A DNA stretch of 64,000 bases from Myxococcota bacterium (GTDB lineage Bacteria; Myxococcota_A; UBA9042; PHBI01; JAWLBL01): assembly GCA_041687695.1 (NCBI GenBank), contig JAWLBL010000005.1, positions 4,382 to 68,381 of the forward strand, given 5' to 3'. A program made the position numbers. Each line of letters opens with the position of its first letter. Position 1 is the stretch's first letter. This document shows, in pieces, positions 27,001 to 48,000 of the stretch.

Positions 27001-30000
27001 AAACTGTCGGCGCCGAAAATTGGGTTCCGCAACATTACGTTCGCCGGCTTGATATCGCGATGTAAGACGACATCTTCCAGTTCGTGAGCAGAAGCCACGA
27101 TAGCCGCAACCCTCGTGAGCACATGAAGTCTTTGTTCGAGAGTGCTGAGGTAACCCTTGGAGAGCGCTTCCTCCAGGGTCAGTCCGGGAACGTGCTCCAT
27201 AAATATCGTTGGCGGAACCTCGTAAGCGTCATGGAAGCGAACCATACCGTCAATATTGTGCTTCGCCAATATTTTCATGGACTTGATGCCACGCCGGAAG
27301 CTTAGCACGTATCTCGGATCGCGCCGAACCTCTTCGAGCATGACTTTGGCGGCCTGAACGCCAGAATCCGGATCAGAAACTCGATACACCTGCCCGAACG
27401 CCCCCTTGCCGATCGGAGCTTCCACGAGCCGCCCAAAGAGCCTGCCCAGAGCCGGGTGGCCAGGTTCGAATAGCCAGGCCTTGTGGGTCGAACGCGGGTA
27501 CTTGCTGAATAGGTCACGAAGAGCGTCTAGCTGTGCTCCCTCCTGTGATGGAGAGTCGCGGACCAGGAAAGCAACAGCCGCGTTCAACTGGCTTCGAATG
27601 TCCTCCTCGTGAAGAGATGCTAGCTGCTCGTCAGGCAGAAGATTTGCCGGATCCAGCAGCCCGCCCTGGAAAGCCGACGGTGGGGCGCCGCTGTCCGGAG
27701 CATACGTAGCGATGTCCTTCAGGAGATCAAGCAGCGCAGTATGATCTGATGTTGTGCGCTGATTGTACTGGACGACACGAAGCCCCCAATCGCGATATTG
27801 CTCCAGCGTCTGGCTGTCTTTCGTGTGAGTGATGATAAACAAGCGAGGCGCGGAGTGTAGCCGTCGCAGAGTCTCGATTGCATGAAATTCGAATGTGACA
27901 TCCAACGGATTAAAACCAACGAGAACTACTACCTTCGTCCGGAGAACGGACGCGATGAAGTCGCGAAGTCCCGTGGAGTTCAGGGTCTGGTCACGCTCCT
28001 CTTTCGTGAACACCCAAGAAGTCTCGTCAGCGAGATCTCCATGTGCCAACAGCAGGAACTCGTCCTGCTTCTGAAGAAAGTAGTTATACTTTGCCGGCTC
28101 CTTGTGTGTAGCGTAGTCAAGACTTCGCCGTCGGATCTGCGCATATGAATCTAGCGGCAACCGGTCGAGATTGTAGGTGATGATGCCATGGACACCGAAC
28201 CGCCAAATCAGGTCATACACCTGATTGGACGGGCAGTTTTCGGTGCTCAAAAGACGGCGAATCGCTTGAACATAGCGAATTCCACCGAGGGAAGTCCGAA
28301 TGCGAGGAAACGCCTGCCAAAGGTCGCTGTAATTCGCCACCGACTTAGCAAGTGCCTCGACTGCCGACTTCTCGTCGTCGGCAAGGGTGAGTGCATCCTG
28401 ACGCACTTGCTTCACCAGCTGGTCCCGTAGCTCGCTCCAAAGTGGAAGTCCAGAGAACTTCGAGACACCTGCACCGGTGAGGAACACAACGTCTTTGGGC
28501 GACTTGGCAATGCGCTGTCGCAAGTCGAGAAAGGCATCTGAGGTTGCGTCGAATGGAACGAAGGTGGGCGCTGGAGGGGGTGTCGGGTCTACAAGATCCA
28601 ATTGGCGGTCTGGTGGTGAAACACCCACGAGACCGCGCTTAACAAGCGTGGCACGCCAGCGGACAAGTGTATTTGCCCGGATGTCGGCTGTCTCTCCACC
28701 GAGGCCTGTCAACTTCTGAATGCGCCTCGTTAGTTCCTCTCGGGTCGGTCCGTCTTTTGCCAGGAGGTCAGGGCACAGCCGCGTAAGCACTTTGGAGTTG
28801 ACAATCGACTCCCGAATATGCAGGCCCTCGGAAACCGAGCCAGGTAGCGTCGCAAGTAGGTCGCGGCCCGCCTGAGTGGGACTATCTGAGCCTTCATCCA
28901 GCCACCCCAGGCACCGAGCGGCATTCTTCACATAATTGATATGCCGGTGCCGAATTCCGGTAAGGTTAACGAGATCATCGCGCGCCACTACTCCGAGGGA
29001 AATCTGGAGCAGTAATGCTCGGATTCTCGTGAGATCTGGAGCCTGTGGGACAAGGTTACTAGCAATGCTCGACATCGGATCACCTCCAGAATTCGCTCAG
29101 GCCAGATGGCCACGACGAAGATGGCTAGAGCGCGACGACAACACAGAGAGTGATGAGAACTGCCATTGAAGCAATCGCCCACATTAGGTACACGGACCAG
29201 CGAACCTATGTGATGATGTGGGCCATCCCTGCGTCGGCACCAAAGATGTTCGACTTGTGGTAATCCAGATAGCGCTTGAGCGGCGCACCTCTTGGTGGCG
29301 CGATGAGGTTGTCGGCCAGATTAGGAGCCCCAAAGTAATAGCTGACGCGGGTGTCACTGGCCATGCTGACGTTGAGGGGGCCGGCGCGGTGGATGCGATA
29401 GCCGCCGTTGACGGTGATGAGGCCCGAGTCGAAGGCGCTGTCGTGGACGGGACAGGCGGCAATGCCGTTGCGGGGATCGAGACGCTCGCGGTCGGTGGAG
29501 ACGGCCCAGGGCTTGATGTGTGACGCGATGATGAGGCCGGAGCCGGGGAGCGAGCGGGGGGCGAAGCCGCAGAAGCCGCAGGCGTGGCCGTAGTTCTGTA
29601 GGACATCGCGGGCGAAGCGATGCTGACCGAGGCGGGCCTTGTGCTCGACCAGGCGGGTGGTCTCGCGGGTCGAGAAGTCGAAGGCCTGGCTGAGGTCGCG
29701 GACGTGCTGTTCTTGCTGGTGAAGGAGCGTCTCGAGTTCCTTGGAGCCGATCTCGTCTTGGCCGAGGAGGGTCAGGTCGGAGTCGAAAGCGCCGAGGAAG
29801 TCGGGCAGGTCATCGGGGCTGATTCCGAGGCTCCAGCCGGCCTTGAGGATGCGAACGTAGAGTTCGGCGTAGAGGCGCTGGTCGACGGAGAGGCGGACGA
29901 AGACCTCGGGCTCGTGTCGGCCGGCGTTGGTGCGCGAGCCGTCGAGGTTGAGCATCTTGTTGGTGAGCGAGCCGGGGGTTCGCTTCAGCAGGCCGGCGAG

Positions 30001-45000: not shown

Positions 45001-48000
45001 AGCTCGGCCGCGATGCGGTCGCCGAAGAAGGGCAGGACCGACTGGCCGTCGGCGCGCTCGGGGGTGGCGGTGAGACCGAGCAGGTAGCGCGGCTGGAGGC
45101 GGTCGAGGAGGCGCCGGTAGGTCGGCGCGGCGGCGTGGTGGAACTCGTCGACGATGACCATGTCGAAGTGGGCGGGCGGCAGATCGTCGGGGCCGAGGGC
45201 GTCGAGGGACTGGACGGAGGCGAAGACGTGGCGCCAGGCGTCGGGGCGGGCGCCGGCGACGAAGAGCTCTCCGAAGGCGCCGTCGCGGAGGACGGCGCGG
45301 AAGGTGTGGAGGGTCTGGAGGAGGAGCTCCTTGCGGTGGGCGACGAAGAGGAGCTTCAGGTCGCCGTGGGCCTGGACGAGGCGGCGGTAGTCGAGGGCGG
45401 CGACGACGGTCTTGCCGGTGCCGGTGGCGGCGACGACCAGGTTGCGAGTGCGGCCGTGGCGCTCGCGCTCGAGACGCAGGGCGTCGAGGATCTCGCGCTG
45501 GTGGGGGCGGGGCTCGACGTCGAGGTGGACGAAGCTGAGGGTCGGCGCGGGCTGGTGGCGCGCGAGGGCGCGGTCGAGGCGGGGGGCGTCGCGGGCGGGG
45601 TCGTAGGGCTGGAAGGCCTCGCTGAGCCAGTAGCTGTCGAAGGTGGCGCGGAACTTGTCGAGCAGGTGCGGGGCCTCGGTGTTCGACAGGCGGACGTTCC
45701 ACTCGAGGCCGTCGAGGAGGGCCGAGCGGGACATGTTCGAGGAGCCGACGTAGGCGGTCGAGTAGCCCGAGGCGCGATGGAAGAGCCAGGCCTTGGCGTG
45801 CAGGCGCGTCGTGTCGCGCTCGTCCATGGCGACGCGGATCTCGGCGCCGAGCTCGTGCAGGCGGTCCAAGGCGCGGCGCTCGGTGACGCCCATGTAGGTG
45901 GTGGTCAGCAGGCGCAGGGGGCGGCCGCGGTCACGGAGGTGGGCGACGAGGGCGGACTCGAGGGTGCGCAGGCCGTACCAGCGGACGAAGGCGAGGATGA
46001 CGTCGACGCGGTCGGCGGAGGCCAGCTCGCGGCGGAGCTCGGCGCCGATGGAGGGCTCGCCGTGGGCGTTGGTGAGGAGGGCGCTGCCGGACAGGACGGT
46101 GGTCGGGCGGTCGGGGGGCGCGGAGGGGGCGAGCGGGCGGGCTTCGGTGATGGCGAGGAGCTGGCGGGCCGGCAGGGCGAGGGCGTCGCCGTCGTCGGGG
46201 GCGCGGCGGGCGTCGCGCAGGACGGCGAGGACGCGCTGGTGCAGGGCGGCCTGCTCGTCGGGGCGGCCGCGGAGGGCGCGGGTCAGCAGGTGGTGGAGGT
46301 GGCGCGCGAGGGCGACGTGGGCGTCGCCGGGGTCGAGGGGCTCGGTGTGGGCGGTGGCCGAGGCGGGGAGCGCGCGGAGGCGGCGGTCGAGGGCCTCGGT
46401 GACCAGGGCCTCGTACAGCCCGGGAGGGAGCGCGTCGGGGGCGAGGTCGTCGGAGCCTTGCGTCACGGAGGGCCTCCTGCGGGGGCGAAGGGAGGCGGCG
46501 ACCGTACTGCGCGGGCGGGAGGTCTGGCAACGGGGTGTTGGGGGGGGGCGAGCGCGCGGCGGATTGCACGAAACTTAACTGAGAGTTGAGTTTCGTGCAT
46601 GAATCGAAACGAGACATCGAGACGGGGAGGGGATTGGGACGCGCTGTATGGGGTGGCCGAGGCGCAGGCCGGGTACGTCACGGCGGCGCAAGCGCGTGAG
46701 GCCGGGTACTATCCGGAGCTACTGCATCGGTACGTCGCCAACGGCACCCTCGCGCGGGTGCGGCGTGGGGTGTACCGGCTGGTGCACTTCCCTGCGAGCG
46801 AGCACGAGGAGCTCGTCGTGGTGTGGCTGTGGGCCGACCGGGCGGGGGTGTTCTCGCACGAGACGGCGCTCTGGCTGCATGGGCTCTCTGACGTGCTGCC
46901 GGCGCGGGTCCATCTGACGGTGCCTTCGAGTTGGCGCAGGAGGCGGCTGCGAGTGCCCCACGGGGTCGTGATGCATCATGCGGAGGTGGCCGAGGGGGAC
47001 CGGTCCTGGATGGGGCCGGTGCCGGTCACGTCGGTGACGCGTACGCTGCGGGACAGTGTGGCGGCGCATGTGTCGCCCGAGCTGAACGAGGCGGCGCTGG
47101 CGGAGGCGCGGGCGCGTGGGCTGATGGGGGCGGCTGAAGCGGCCGAGGTGGATGAGGCGCTGCGAGCAGCGGGGGAGATTGGCTCGTGAGTACGACGCGG
47201 TACGCGACTCCGCAGGCCTTCAAGCAGGGGTTGGAGCAGCTTGTTGAAGGCTCAGCCTTCGGCCTTGGCGCGGCTGAGCAGGCGGGCGTGGACGGAGGCC
47301 GCGAGGTTCGCGGGGGTGGTCATTGCAGGGCCTCGAGGTAGGGCCGGAGCGGGCCCTCGACGCGGCAGAGGCGGGCGTAGTGCAGGAGTTCGGAGGGCTG
47401 GACGTGCTTGCGGGTGAGGGCCTGCTGCAGGGCATCGAGGGCGACGTCGAGGCCGAGCTTGTGGCGGAAGCGGAAGCAGTCGACGACGGTCTTGGCGAGG
47501 CCGTAGACGGGCACCTGGACGCCGTCGAGGGGGAGGTGCTCGATGCCCTCGGAGAACGCAGGGCCGGAGAAGTGGAAGACGCGGATGGGCGGGTGGTCGA
47601 GCGCGGGGGGAGTAACGCCTCTGGGGAGGGCGATGTGGACCTCGTGGGGCACCTCGGAGGTGGCGTCGTGGAGGGCCAGGGCCGAGATGAGGCACACGAC
47701 GGCGCGAGGGACGCGGAGGGCGACGGTGACGAGGTCCGGGTGCTCGAGCGGCGGAGCGTCGGTGAGGCGGTAGACGCCGCGGGTGAGCGGCTCGACCAGG
47801 CCGGCGTCGCGGAGGGCGTAGAGCGTGCGGGGGTGGATGCCGAGGGCCAGGGCCTGGCTGGTCTCGAGCATCCCGGCGTGCTCTCGAAAGACCTGGAGGG
47901 CGTGCTGCGTGGAGTGGAGCGTCATGTTGGATAGAATCTACACCACTTCGCTATGGGTGTAGTGGATTTTATCCAGGCGGGTGCCTGCGGTGGTGGGCGC

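Follow-up and report, generated by a model that had tools for sequence, protein, structure and literature searches.

Copies of a HIT gene 5′ end separate stacked defence-type cassettes, probably through serial insertion, in a Myxococcota bacterium

The analysed DNA, a 64-kb window of one contig, contains an array of functionally unrelated cassettes between an mREase_IV-type gene and a HIT gene, with copies of the HIT 5′ end standing between the cassettes. The origin that we favour, with slightly better than even confidence, is a series of five insertions with long target duplication, by which foreign cassettes accumulated between mREase_IV and HIT. Homology to the HIT 5′ end would have anchored each insertion, without a recognisable recombinase. 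Single events of this kind are already known, but a five-fold stack at one gene is unusual. The features are listed in Table 1 in the direction of transcription.

Table 1. Features of the array; positions count along the window, percentages and lengths are blastn matches to the HIT query, and upstream ends are those of the matches.
Feature	Position	Strand	Match	Upstream end	Description
mREase_IV-type gene	43332..46466	-			heads the array; PLDc_2, ResIII, Helicase_C, DUF3427; PADLOC mREase_IV 7.8e-284
Spacer, mREase_IV to c6	42911..43331	.			two dispersed repeat families: ~212 nt; REP-like, 52-65 nt
Stub c6	42801..42924	-	87.7% over 114 nt	42910	most diverged copy; continuous with original upstream flank
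Cargo 6	40332..42720	-			three genes: 41479-42720 (AAA_16/STAND-like), 40940-41482, 40332-41030
Stub c5	40207..40325	-	92.2% over 115 nt	~40325	without common upstream piece
Cargo 5	39365..40126	-			PDC-S27/DUF234, C-terminal half; PADLOC PDC-S27 1.8e-92
Stub c4	39005..39341	-	95.6% over 250 nt	39336	HIT part -50 to ~+214, then ~100 nt of g01178
Cargo 4	37496..38905	-			140-aa ORF; 326-aa TPR protein
Stub c3	37135..37470	-	96.1% over 331 nt	37465	
Cargo 3	34511..37100	-			unknown ~500-aa protein; metallo-beta-lactamase (MBL)-fold protein (PDC-M48B/LmuA-like, PADLOC)
Copy c2	33895..34499	-	98.8% over 434 nt	34499	near-complete HIT gene with whole HIT domain; ends ~10 nt before stop
Cargo 2	32004..33838	-			143-aa ORF; M78-peptidase protein (RmrA/CapP-like, PADLOC)
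Copy c1	31425..31904	-	100% over 581 nt	31904	intact HIT gene; ATG 31868, stop 31425
g01178 and g01177	29206..31428	-			resident partners of HIT: g01178 (30277-31428, HNH), g01177 (29206-30204, HNH_2)

The full HIT gene with its flanks (31380-31960, minus strand) was compared by blastn with all 63 contigs. Six same-strand copies are found (E 0 to 1e-31), all on this contig. Matches in the rest of the genome are at most 115 nt long and 71–93% identical, with E values of 4e-6 or weaker. The same six copies are recovered by a repeat search and by a self-blast of the region, which bears out the survey's finding of six HIT 5′ copies in one orientation that are unique to the locus. A whole HIT domain had been assigned to the last copy and the one before it, and this holds for c1 and c2.

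The intact copy c1 contains the His triad HLHVHVIP, has a GC3 of 0.99 and carries 36 nt of common upstream sequence. Copy c2 is interrupted by a 131-nt insert (33938-34068) that has a GGCAA duplication on both sides and no second copy in the genome; past the insert, the HIT match picks up again at 33937-33895 (95%). In c4, the HIT part directly adjoins a g01178 piece (39005-39106) that is 96% identical to 31229-31330 by self-blast. Because the HIT part runs straight into this piece, the right end of c4 originally lay in g01178, and c4 was shortened later by a ~310-nt internal deletion at a short shared motif. The last gene of the AAA_16 trio stops 6 nt before the ATG of c5. Stub c6 has lost its ATG and contains indels. 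The truncated copies had been described as reaching 434, 331, 250, 115 and ~110 nt into the gene; these figures stand as match lengths, but c2 is nearly whole past its insert and c4 continues into g01178. Part of the neat nesting by length is thus secondary, in view of the nearly whole c2, the c4 deletion and a truncated PDC-S27 cargo.

The mREase_IV gene and the HIT-g01178(HNH)-g01177(HNH_2) operon are predicted to constitute the resident system, a type IV-restriction-like cluster. The GTG start of g01178 overlaps the HIT stop. The mREase_IV-type gene has a native-like GC3 of 0.98; the values for HIT, g01178 and mREase_IV are 0.98–0.99, whereas those of the cargo genes are 0.74–0.88. The lower cargo GC3 fits foreign inserts between native genes. 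The HIT-g01178-g01177 module is also present in G037 and G057, and HIT-g01178 without g01177 in G011, G397 and G070; G098 is also counted among the genomes with the HIT-g01178(-g01177) module. In G070, the module adjoins an mREase_IV gene. Fusion of HIT to a PLD-helicase is frequent in other genomes; HIT forms the N terminus of such a protein in G002, G009 and G017, and in the first two of these the fused gene lies beside an mREase_IV-like gene. Among 80 HIT loci of other genomes, the next gene encodes a PLD-helicase in 17 and a g01178-like protein in 11; the defence-like genes in this position are PLD-helicase, g01178-like HNH, HNH_2 or McrB-like. A cargo family directly follows HIT at none of these 80 loci, which argues that HIT and the cargo are not natural partners.

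The cassettes are 0.8–2.6 kb long, and most are predicted to be of defence type. The Pfam and PADLOC names given in the survey were reproduced (mREase_IV, PDC-S27, RmrA/CapP-like M78, PDC-M48B/LmuA-like MBL and HNH; Table 1). All three genes of cargo 6 are intact and are kept as a trio in G388, G119 and G301, and the M78 pair of cargo 2 is kept in G098. No HIT match lies beside the trio or the M78 pair at the four loci from other genomes (L032–L035). Cargo 5 covers only positions 252-482 of the 484-position PDC-S27 profile, in agreement with its earlier description as a DUF234/PDC-S27 piece, and is therefore probably dead; G311 holds a full-length homologue of 487 aa. The 140-aa ORF of cargo 4 has a weak likeness to Tse2-ADPRT (E 4.7e-4, under the Pfam cut-off). 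Both repeat families of the spacer have many copies on other contigs, 78–92% identical.

The break points of the copies differ. The left limit is at −36 in c1 and c2, at about −47 to −50 in c3, c4 and c6, and at ~0 in c5. The copies therefore do not end at the common upstream point that had been reported for them, and the same ~36 bases upstream of the ATG are present in all copies but c5. The five stub right ends are all different, and that of c4 lies in the next gene, g01178. With three left limits and five right ends, the boundaries are not one site, in line with the doubt already cast on a fixed att site for the differing break points. Each stub-to-cargo joint is unique sequence, with no repeat common to the joints. 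The junction zones contain no hairpin (z-scores +1.0 to −1.8) and no conserved core beyond the HIT gene sequence itself. No integrase or transposase is recognised by Pfam on the 57 ORFs of the window, as the survey had noted for recombinases nearby, and the window contains no tRNA or Rfam family. A promoter reading of the −36 piece is weak; the candidate TTGCCC-17 nt-CATCCT fails the consensus scan, which gives 0 sites in 29000-47000. The left limits recur, ~−50 three times and −36 twice, and this counts against the favoured origin.

The same kind of scar is found at other loci. In G010, a 260-nt direct repeat (96%) spans −46 to +214 of the HIT-PLD-helicase gene and flanks 3.7 kb of cargo composed of SLFN-ATPase, DUF6036 and AbiEi/AbiEii genes. 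The limit of the duplication at −46 is just upstream of a TTGACA box. The presence of this scar at a HIT-fusion gene lends support to serial capture. In G311, the full PDC-S27 gene is flanked by an 83-nt gene-end duplication. Elsewhere in the genome under study (G000), at least seven further gene-end duplications, all unique, surround inserts of 1.6–6.2 kb; in four 3′-end cases, the outer limit follows the stop codon by 0, 0, 2 and 11 nt. Such tight recurring limits, together with the HIT left ends, speak against the favoured origin because random fragment ends do not predict them. Of two further arrays claimed for this genome, the one on C10 has three copies that are 97–99% identical, but the one with 100% identical repeats, at nnrS on C15, is a single pair of 340 nt. 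The process of insertion plus gene-end duplication is general. No empty site, donor or near relative was found, the closest HIT DNA elsewhere being 80% identical, and a metagenome pattern scan found nothing.

The stubs c2–c5 are free of indels and stops. In c4, one serine codon has switched synonymously (TCC>AGC), and an in-frame two-codon change, SD>EG/KG, is common to c3 and c5. The HIT domain of the stubs displays 4 synonymous versus 3 conservative changes. These copies look like diverged functional alleles. Over the 70 columns common to all six copies, the nearest pairs are c1-c2 (97.1%), c3-c5 (94.2%) and c4-c6 (92.9%); at several pairs of sites, all four combinations occur. The similarities are not tree-like and form no simple age series. 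Allele-like stubs with such similarities suggest import from related lineages. When all stub-versus-intact comparisons in this genome are counted, among which the HIT rows are not independent, the differences fall on codon positions 1:2:3 as 39:20:29. The lack of a third-position excess agrees equally well with decay in place and with imported alleles.

The survey had proposed serial capture of cassettes by recombination inside the HIT 5′ end. In its core, this fits the anatomy of the locus and the G010 scar, but the copies do not form the age series that their identity gradient would suggest. In the ancestral locus, mREase_IV would have been directly followed by the HIT-g01178-g01177 operon. 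Foreign cassettes of 0.8–2.6 kb would have been added, one by one, just upstream of HIT on at least five occasions. Each event would duplicate the promoter-proximal region of HIT and a variable length of the operon, ~60 to ~690 nt, and leave a 5′ stub upstream of the new cargo and an intact operon downstream. We infer the order of events and the route from sequence. The likeliest route may be homology-anchored RecA-type recombination with DNA of related lineages carrying other HIT alleles, either as a single crossover with a circularised fragment or through one homologous and one illegitimate joint. A dedicated recombinase or a fixed att site would not be needed. The internal deletion in c4, the 131-nt insert in c2, the loss of the upstream piece from c5 and the decay of c6 would have come later. 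Each cassette would sit behind a copy of the HIT upstream region, and the cassettes would be easily lost or excised through homologous recombination between the direct repeats of 110–470 nt.

A possible, though less probable, alternative is target duplication in place. A cassette would enter at a break or stalled fork at the HIT gene edge by non-homologous end joining or template switching (MMBIR-like), with 60–690 nt of resident sequence copied twice, and the stubs would then decay and exchange patches by gene conversion. Repeats are also near-identical in the published cases (PMC2853133). The nnrS pair is as expected for a duplication made in place, and third positions hold 29 of 88 differences, without excess. 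The outer limits hug gene edges, the promoter edge in the 5′ cases and the stop codon in the four 3′ cases, which a barrier at gene ends could explain. However, a strict series predicts a ladder-like tree, and the nearest pairs include c3-c5 and c4-c6. The serine switch, the common two-codon change and the absence of indels in c2–c5 look like selection on functional alleles, and an extra deletion must be assumed in c5, where the −50 to 0 piece still held by the later copies c4–c1 is missing.

Gene-end restoration by islands is well known, and the array might have grown as small islands without an integrase accreted in tandem at an att site of the HIT promoter region. A recombinase of the tyrosine, serine or Xer type, encoded elsewhere, would move these islands, and each would bring a replacement 5′ end. 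Four of the five stubs begin at one of two sharp points, −36 or ~−50, and the G010 limit near its TTGACA box is at a similar place. We regard this origin as improbable: the window has no recognised integrase and no tRNA, the right ends differ in all five stubs with one in the next gene, c5 has a different left limit, the junction zones have neither hairpin nor conserved core beyond gene sequence, and the same layout occurs at unrelated genes of this genome with other repeat lengths. Still less credit is given to local tandem duplication of the entire HIT operon with later deletions and unrelated insertions into spare copies, in which case the stubs would not mark insertion events. The nearly whole c2 and the g01178 piece of c4 suggest that spare copies were once longer, and the c4 deletion is at a short shared motif. 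But five independent insertions would be needed, each placed precisely after a truncated copy and before the next copy begins; self-blast of the region finds no g01178 or g01177 remnant in units other than c4; and G010, G311 and nnrS display single clean insert-plus-duplication events. An assembly artefact, in which the common HIT 5′ sequence linked up strain variants that carry different cassettes in a single slot, is the least credible. The repeats are 88–99% alike, but an assembler cannot invent unique stub-to-cargo joints that have no repeat at the joint, the copies differ from one another at many sites, and the genome is 99.3% complete with 2.3% contamination.

The array resembles several known arrangements. 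Integron cassette arrays, with IntI, attI, attC and the Pc promoter, collect one-directional, promoter-poor cassettes at one acceptor locus, and the present array is likewise a one-way stack of promoter-poor, functionally unrelated cassettes split by a recurring sequence. Unlike integrons, it has no IntI, the recurring sequence is the variable-length 5′ end of a protein gene rather than a folded attC, and the intact gene is at the far end whereas integrons have the integrase at the head. Integrative islands accrete in tandem at the ends of tRNA or protein genes, with partial target copies separating the inserts and the intact gene kept at one end, as here; in contrast, the units here are only 0.8–2.6 kb, lack an integrase and share no constant core or identity block. 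Direct repeats that alternate with different cargo, and between which recombination can add or remove units, are also a property of IS26 translocatable units and Rhs/CdiA orphan-module arrays. The repeat here encodes no transposase, unlike IS26. As in the present array, a main-gene piece precedes every displaced module among Rhs orphans; unlike in Rhs arrays, the pieces here come from the 5′ end, the intact gene stands last and no cargo is fused to its stub.

The closest published cases are described by Furuta et al. 2010 (NAR, PMC2853133), in which restriction-modification genes are inserted without mobility genes and with a long target duplication of variable length. Such insertion is seen there for types I–IV, the mechanism is left open, and the first H. 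pylori cases are credited to its reference 37. Both those cases and the present array involve a few-kb gene block without mobility gene, and direct repeats of tens to hundreds of bp, variable in length from case to case, in which a single-copy target, frequently the end of a gene, is duplicated. Unlike in the portion of that paper considered, the event here is repeated five times at one gene to give a nested array, the cargo comprises other defence-type modules instead of a restriction-modification pair, the duplications reach 470 to ~690 nt, the stubs seem derived from different alleles, and an empty site for alignment was not found. Payne et al. 2024 (bioRxiv 10.1101/2024.01.29.577857) describe 'guilt by embedding', in which defence genes are embedded inside other defence systems. 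The part of that text considered here contains no insertion scars and none of the words recombination, duplication, truncated or hotspot, and its host systems (Hma, BREX, DISARM and type I RM) do not include mREase_IV with HIT-HNH. The PDC-S27 and PDC-M48B cargo are named from its candidate set, and, as in the clusters treated there, a defence cluster of several genes is interspersed with unrelated defence cassettes on the same strand.

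The 5' end of the HIT gene is present in six copies of the same orientation on one contig, designated c1 (the intact gene) to c6 (the most diverged stub, next to mREase_IV). A blastn search of the whole 7.97-Mb assembly with the intact gene and its flanks returns matches of 100% over 581 nt, 98.8% over 434 nt, 96.1% over 331 nt, 95.6% over 250 nt, 92.2% over 115 nt, and 87.7% over 114 nt, and none elsewhere. A repeat search and a self-comparison concord with blastn, so the six copies reported by the survey are real and far beyond chance.

All genes in the array region are encoded on the minus strand. 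In the direction of transcription, the array is headed by the mREase_IV gene and a spacer of ~420 nt, followed by stub c6, a three-gene AAA_16/STAND-like module, and stub c5. The C-terminal half of a PDC-S27/DUF234 gene separates c5 from stub c4, and a 140-aa ORF and a TPR protein separate c4 from stub c3. Then come an unknown protein of ~500 aa and an MBL-fold protein, copy c2, a 143-aa ORF with an M78-peptidase protein, and the intact HIT gene c1. The stop codon of c1 and the GTG start codon of g01178 (HNH) overlap, and g01177 (HNH_2) comes next. Two elements account for most of the spacer after mREase_IV: a dispersed one of ~212 nt, with copies on many contigs at 78-83% identity, and a REP-like one of 52-65 nt.

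The individual copies differ from the survey's finding in several respects. Copy c2, which had been taken to end at 434 nt, is a near-complete HIT gene that holds the whole domain and reaches to ~10 nt before the stop. It is split by a 131-nt insert flanked by GGCAA; a multi-copy MITE is ruled out, as the insert has no other copy in the genome. Copy c4 is not a plain HIT stub. At about +214 relative to the HIT ATG, it passes directly into ~100 nt of g01178, and the joint lies at a short motif present in both genes. Therefore, c4 once carried the complete HIT gene along with 200 nt or more of g01178. The shared upstream piece is absent from c5, where the last gene of the AAA_16 trio stops 6 nt before the ATG. 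The upstream limit is likewise not common to all, being -36 for c1 and c2 and about -47 to -50 for c3, c4, and c6. There is no support for c5 and c6 having once formed a single older stub that the trio cut in two, as they are the least similar pair (87.1%).

The family names quoted for the cargo were reproduced with Pfam and PADLOC, and by family likeness the cargo genes are putative defence genes. The AAA_16/STAND-like trio is intact and is kept as three genes in three other genomes (G388, G119, and G301). It does not represent one gene broken by frameshifts: its parts are not in one frame, and in those genomes, too, each begins at residue 1. The M78 pair is conserved in G098. The PDC-S27 cargo spans only positions 252-482 of the 484 profile positions.

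The HIT domain (PF01230) scores 91.3 bits in c1 and 90.3 bits in c2, with a Pfam cut-off of 21.5, and the histidine triad HxHxHxx can be read in its sequence as HLHVHVIP. Relatives in the PDB include Ap4A phosphorylase, Fhit, and HINT. The closest HIT relatives, with 78% and 75% protein identity, occur in G002 and G009 as the N-terminal domain of HIT-PLDc_2-ResIII-Helicase_C-S24 proteins of 1327-1467 aa. These fusions adjoin an mREase_IV-like DUF3427 helicase, and the HIT domain of G017 is also fused to a PLD-helicase. HIT is followed by g01178, with or without g01177, in G011, G037, G057, G397, G070, and G098, more distant genomes with a single HIT in this arrangement; in G070, an mREase_IV gene comes next. 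Among 80 HIT loci of other genomes, a PLD-helicase lies directly after or is fused to HIT in 17 and a g01178-like gene in 11. A scan of 49 ORFs near HIT in the remaining loci identified HNH_2 proteins in three loci and a McrB-like protein in one. Housekeeping HIT genes, flanked by other housekeeping genes, make up many of the weaker matches among the 80. The g01177 HNH domain is similar to that of PDB 6yex, a modification-dependent HNH endonuclease.

These neighbours and fusions identify HIT as an upstream module of type IV-restriction-like nucleases. HIT, g01178, and mREase_IV have a GC3 of 0.98-0.99 versus 0.74-0.88 for the cargo genes. Most likely, mREase_IV was ancestrally followed directly by HIT, g01178, and g01177, and the cargo was inserted between them later. 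By linkage, the mREase_IV and HIT-g01178 parts may work together. The HIT family is associated with PLD-helicases, g01178-like HNH, HNH_2, and McrB-like proteins in several phyla, directly upstream or by fusion, so a HIT hydrolase may play an accessory part, as yet unstudied, in type IV-like restriction. None of the 80 loci has a cargo family directly after HIT, which rejects the idea that each unit of the array is a former HIT-plus-effector system, and none contains two HIT matches. The first 110 residues of mREase_IV are not a HIT remnant either; they give no more than a compositional blastp match of 36% (E 0.002, pairwise), and Pfam finds no HIT there.

Similar scars are found at other loci, whose coordinates are listed in the table. 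G010 belongs to the same order as this genome (G000) and to another family. Its repeat covers the start of a HIT-PLD-helicase-S24-DUF3427 gene, with the second copy 4 kb upstream. The 3.7 kb between the copies contain SLFN/AlbA_2-ATPase, DUF6036, and AbiEi/AbiEii genes, together with two more copies of the upstream piece alone, with a TTGACA box. In G311, another myxobacterial genome, a full-length PDC-S27 gene (487 aa) lies between 83-nt repeats of 98% identity. A survey of G000 for local direct repeats unique to their locus yielded further gene-end duplications around inserts of 1.6-6.2 kb. An intact P-type ATPase gene is preceded, at a distance of 6.2 kb, by a duplicate of its 5' end with an internal gap like that of c4, and the cargo encodes a 1372-aa eCIS_core (DUF4157) protein and a 519-aa protein. 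Five 3'-end duplications flank inserts of 1.6-3.7 kb, which carry, among other cargo, a YhcG-type nuclease and an AbiEi_2 pair. The scars in G010, G311, and the G000 gene ends therefore indicate that the process is general and that its targets are not limited to HIT or defence genes.

Coordinates of features in the window and at other loci (L, locus, with positions counted within it unless a contig is prefixed; C, contig)
Feature	Location	Positions	Strand	Description
mREase_IV gene	window	43332-46466	-	head of the array
Spacer	window	42911-43331		dispersed and REP-like elements
Two-gene module, tandem duplicate	window	14842-15894 and 16402-17448		1057 nt, 90%; 295/293 aa + 122 aa
SIR2_2 + protein-kinase gene	window	26178-29075	-	965 aa
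AbiEi-type gene	window	46599-47189	+	adjoins mREase_IV
AbiEi-type gene	window	47320-47925	-	divergent from the preceding
G010 repeat	L126 (G010:C22:18000-33000)	6330-6589 and 10322-10581		260 nt, 96%, -46 to +214
G010 upstream piece alone	L126	8446-8500 and 9269-9323		55 nt
G311 repeat	L031 (G311:C715)	1409-1491 and 3211-3293		last 51 nt of preceding gene + 32 nt past its stop
nnrS 5' end	L019 (G000:C15:144000-157000)	4753-5092 and 7701-8040		340 nt, 100%, -84 to +256
P-type ATPase gene 5' end	L118 (G000:C21:75000-86000)	1589-2196 and 8189-9011		359 + 250 nt
Five 3'-end duplications	L119-L123 (G000)	C2:79018/82130, C6:259618/261699, C50:9173/12938, C12:146500/150067, C36:23919/25641		84-115 nt
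C10 repeat	L020 (G000:C10:8000-19000)	4203-4351, 4914-5068, and 6240-6398		three copies, 97-99%

The 2.6-kb insert at nnrS encodes a 491-aa Cys-rich protein with a NADase_transloc-type domain, and part of it is multi-copy and found at contig ends elsewhere. A gene for an IS200-like Y1 transposase is located just upstream of the nnrS stub. The C10 repeat takes in the first 31 codons of a small ORF on the plus strand, along with ~58 nt upstream of it. Beyond that, every copy has its own continuation, and after at least two of them comes a second gene in close coupling. Repeats on contig C8, considered as a further array, proved to be REP-like dispersed elements.

Furuta et al. (2010, PMC2853133) described insertion with long target duplication for types I-IV of restriction-modification gene complexes. 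The inserts carry no mobility genes and are flanked by target-duplicating direct repeats of 46 to ~420 bp; the authors leave the mechanism open and suggest that it may be linked to DNA breakage. Their criteria ask for direct repeats of >30 bp, otherwise single-copy in the genome, around an insert of <20 kb without mobility genes that holds both an R and an M gene, and for a related genome whose uninterrupted target aligns with both repeats. Here, the repeats are 110-470 nt long and confined to this locus, and between every two adjacent copies lies one cargo block of 0.8-2.6 kb without mobility genes. Instead of an R and an M gene, the cargo consists of the STAND-like trio, the PDC-S27 fragment, and the TPR, MBL, and M78 pairs, and neither Pfam nor PADLOC detects a methyltransferase in it. 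Therefore, the likeness to these cases is in mechanism and not in cargo class. The array is a genuine and exceptionally rich instance of a type of event already known, repeated five times, nested, and with a counterpart in a second genome.

The cargo also sits between genes that elsewhere form one system, as judged from the linkage in G070, G002, and G009. Unrelated defence genes inside multi-gene defence systems were reported by Payne et al. (2024, bioRxiv 10.1101/2024.01.29.577857), whose text, in the part available, makes no mention of recombination, duplication, or truncated copies. A literature search of shallow coverage, which does not prove absence, found no account of defence cassettes separated by nested stubs of a gene start. 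The means by which defence islands acquire and accumulate systems in the absence of transposases and integrases are still poorly understood. Since five successive seams are kept at one locus, the array records the process. Its acceptor is a gene start within a restriction-type cluster, and the cargo is unrelated to the acceptor. With the array and the scars in G010, G311, and elsewhere in G000, the scope of insertion with long target duplication widens from restriction-modification pairs to defence cassettes generally. In addition, the array provides concrete substrates with which the mechanism could be tested in a myxobacterial model.

Several observations speak against a route driven by an integrase or another site-specific enzyme, such as the accretion of islands at a gene end. 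The survey had noted no integrase near the array, and this is borne out: neither an integrase nor a transposase is recognised in the cargo or the rest of the 64-kb window (Pfam, 57 ORFs; PADLOC). The window also contains no tRNA and no Rfam family. The break points vary between copies, as had been claimed, with three left limits and five differing right ends, of which one falls within the following gene, rather than a constant crossover core. The five junction zones fold no better than shuffled sequences (z +1.0 to -1.8) and show no hairpin. An integron differs from the array in the IntI-type tyrosine recombinase encoded beside it, of which there is none among the 57 ORFs, and in the attC sites, imperfect palindromes with a single-stranded fold, that follow each cassette. 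The recurring unit here is HIT coding sequence, and by the comparison with shuffled sequences, in which no dedicated attC model was used, the junction zones show no such folding.

Import through HIT homology would be the simplest account. DNA from related lineages, with another cassette beside another HIT allele, would recombine through HIT homology on one side. The other end would be joined illegitimately or by circularisation, so that the cassette would be added and not swapped. Copies c2 to c5 contain no indels or stops. A synonymous serine switch (TCC>AGC) is present in c4, and an in-frame two-codon change from SD to EG/KG is common to c3 and c5. Changes in the HIT domain are 4 synonymous versus 3 conservative, leaving out an apparent V71I of c4 that belongs to the g01178 joint. 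The nearest pairs over the 70 columns present in all copies are c1-c2 (97.1%), c3-c5 (94.2%), and c4-c6 (92.9%), a pattern that is not ladder-like, and several pairs of sites show all four combinations. The features of c2 to c5 and the non-ladder similarities would argue for recombination between diverged alleles, and the allele differences of the scars point to exchange between related lineages. Neither an empty site nor a donor nor a near relative was recovered: the nearest HIT sequence elsewhere is 80% identical in DNA, the best protein in genome_contigs is 73% identical, and a 26-nt HIT pattern has no match in a metagenome scan. A serious, if somewhat unlikely, rival is a break-repair or template-switch process at gene edges, followed by gene conversion. 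It would suit observations that tell against import: the nnrS pair, whose copies are fully identical, and the differences between stub and intact gene, which distribute 39:20:29 over codon positions 1-3 without a third-position excess (all comparisons, with HIT rows sharing sites). The strikingly tight outer limits also speak for it and against import. They lie at -36 or about -50 at HIT and at -46 in G010; at the 3' ends, they lie 0, 0, 2, and 11 nt after the stop of the intact gene in four cases and 10 nt before it in the fifth, and in G311 32 nt after the stop.

Each cassette sits downstream of a copy of the HIT upstream piece (c5 itself lacks it), which reads TTGCCC-17 nt-CATCCT-7 nt-ATG. 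Whether it acts as a promoter is uncertain from the sequence; a consensus scan gives no site for a sigma-70 promoter at -36, which remains a weak reading. The direct repeats of the array are predicted to permit loss or excision of cassettes by homologous recombination. A bolder and distinctly unlikely reading is that the start of HIT-headed type IV restriction genes is a genuine cassette acceptor in Myxococcota, a recombinase-free counterpart of the integron. The gene start and its promoter would then serve as homology handle, as driver of cassette expression, and as repeat for excision and passage between lineages. If so, the seam shared by G000 and G010 and the promoter-only copies of G010 would reflect a selected platform and not chance scars.

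The window as a whole is a defence island, in which Pfam identifies BrxC/D-like, McrBC, HTH-M78, SIR2-kinase, HNH, and mREase_IV genes and two AbiEi genes. No AbiEii toxin for the latter, which are divergent antitoxin-type genes, is recognised among the ORFs scanned. A tandemly duplicated two-gene module has no Pfam family. In the SIR2-kinase protein, the kinase part is PD-T4-6/mad6-like. The GC content of the segment that holds its gene is only 56-58% versus ~70% around it, and the segment is probably a recent import.
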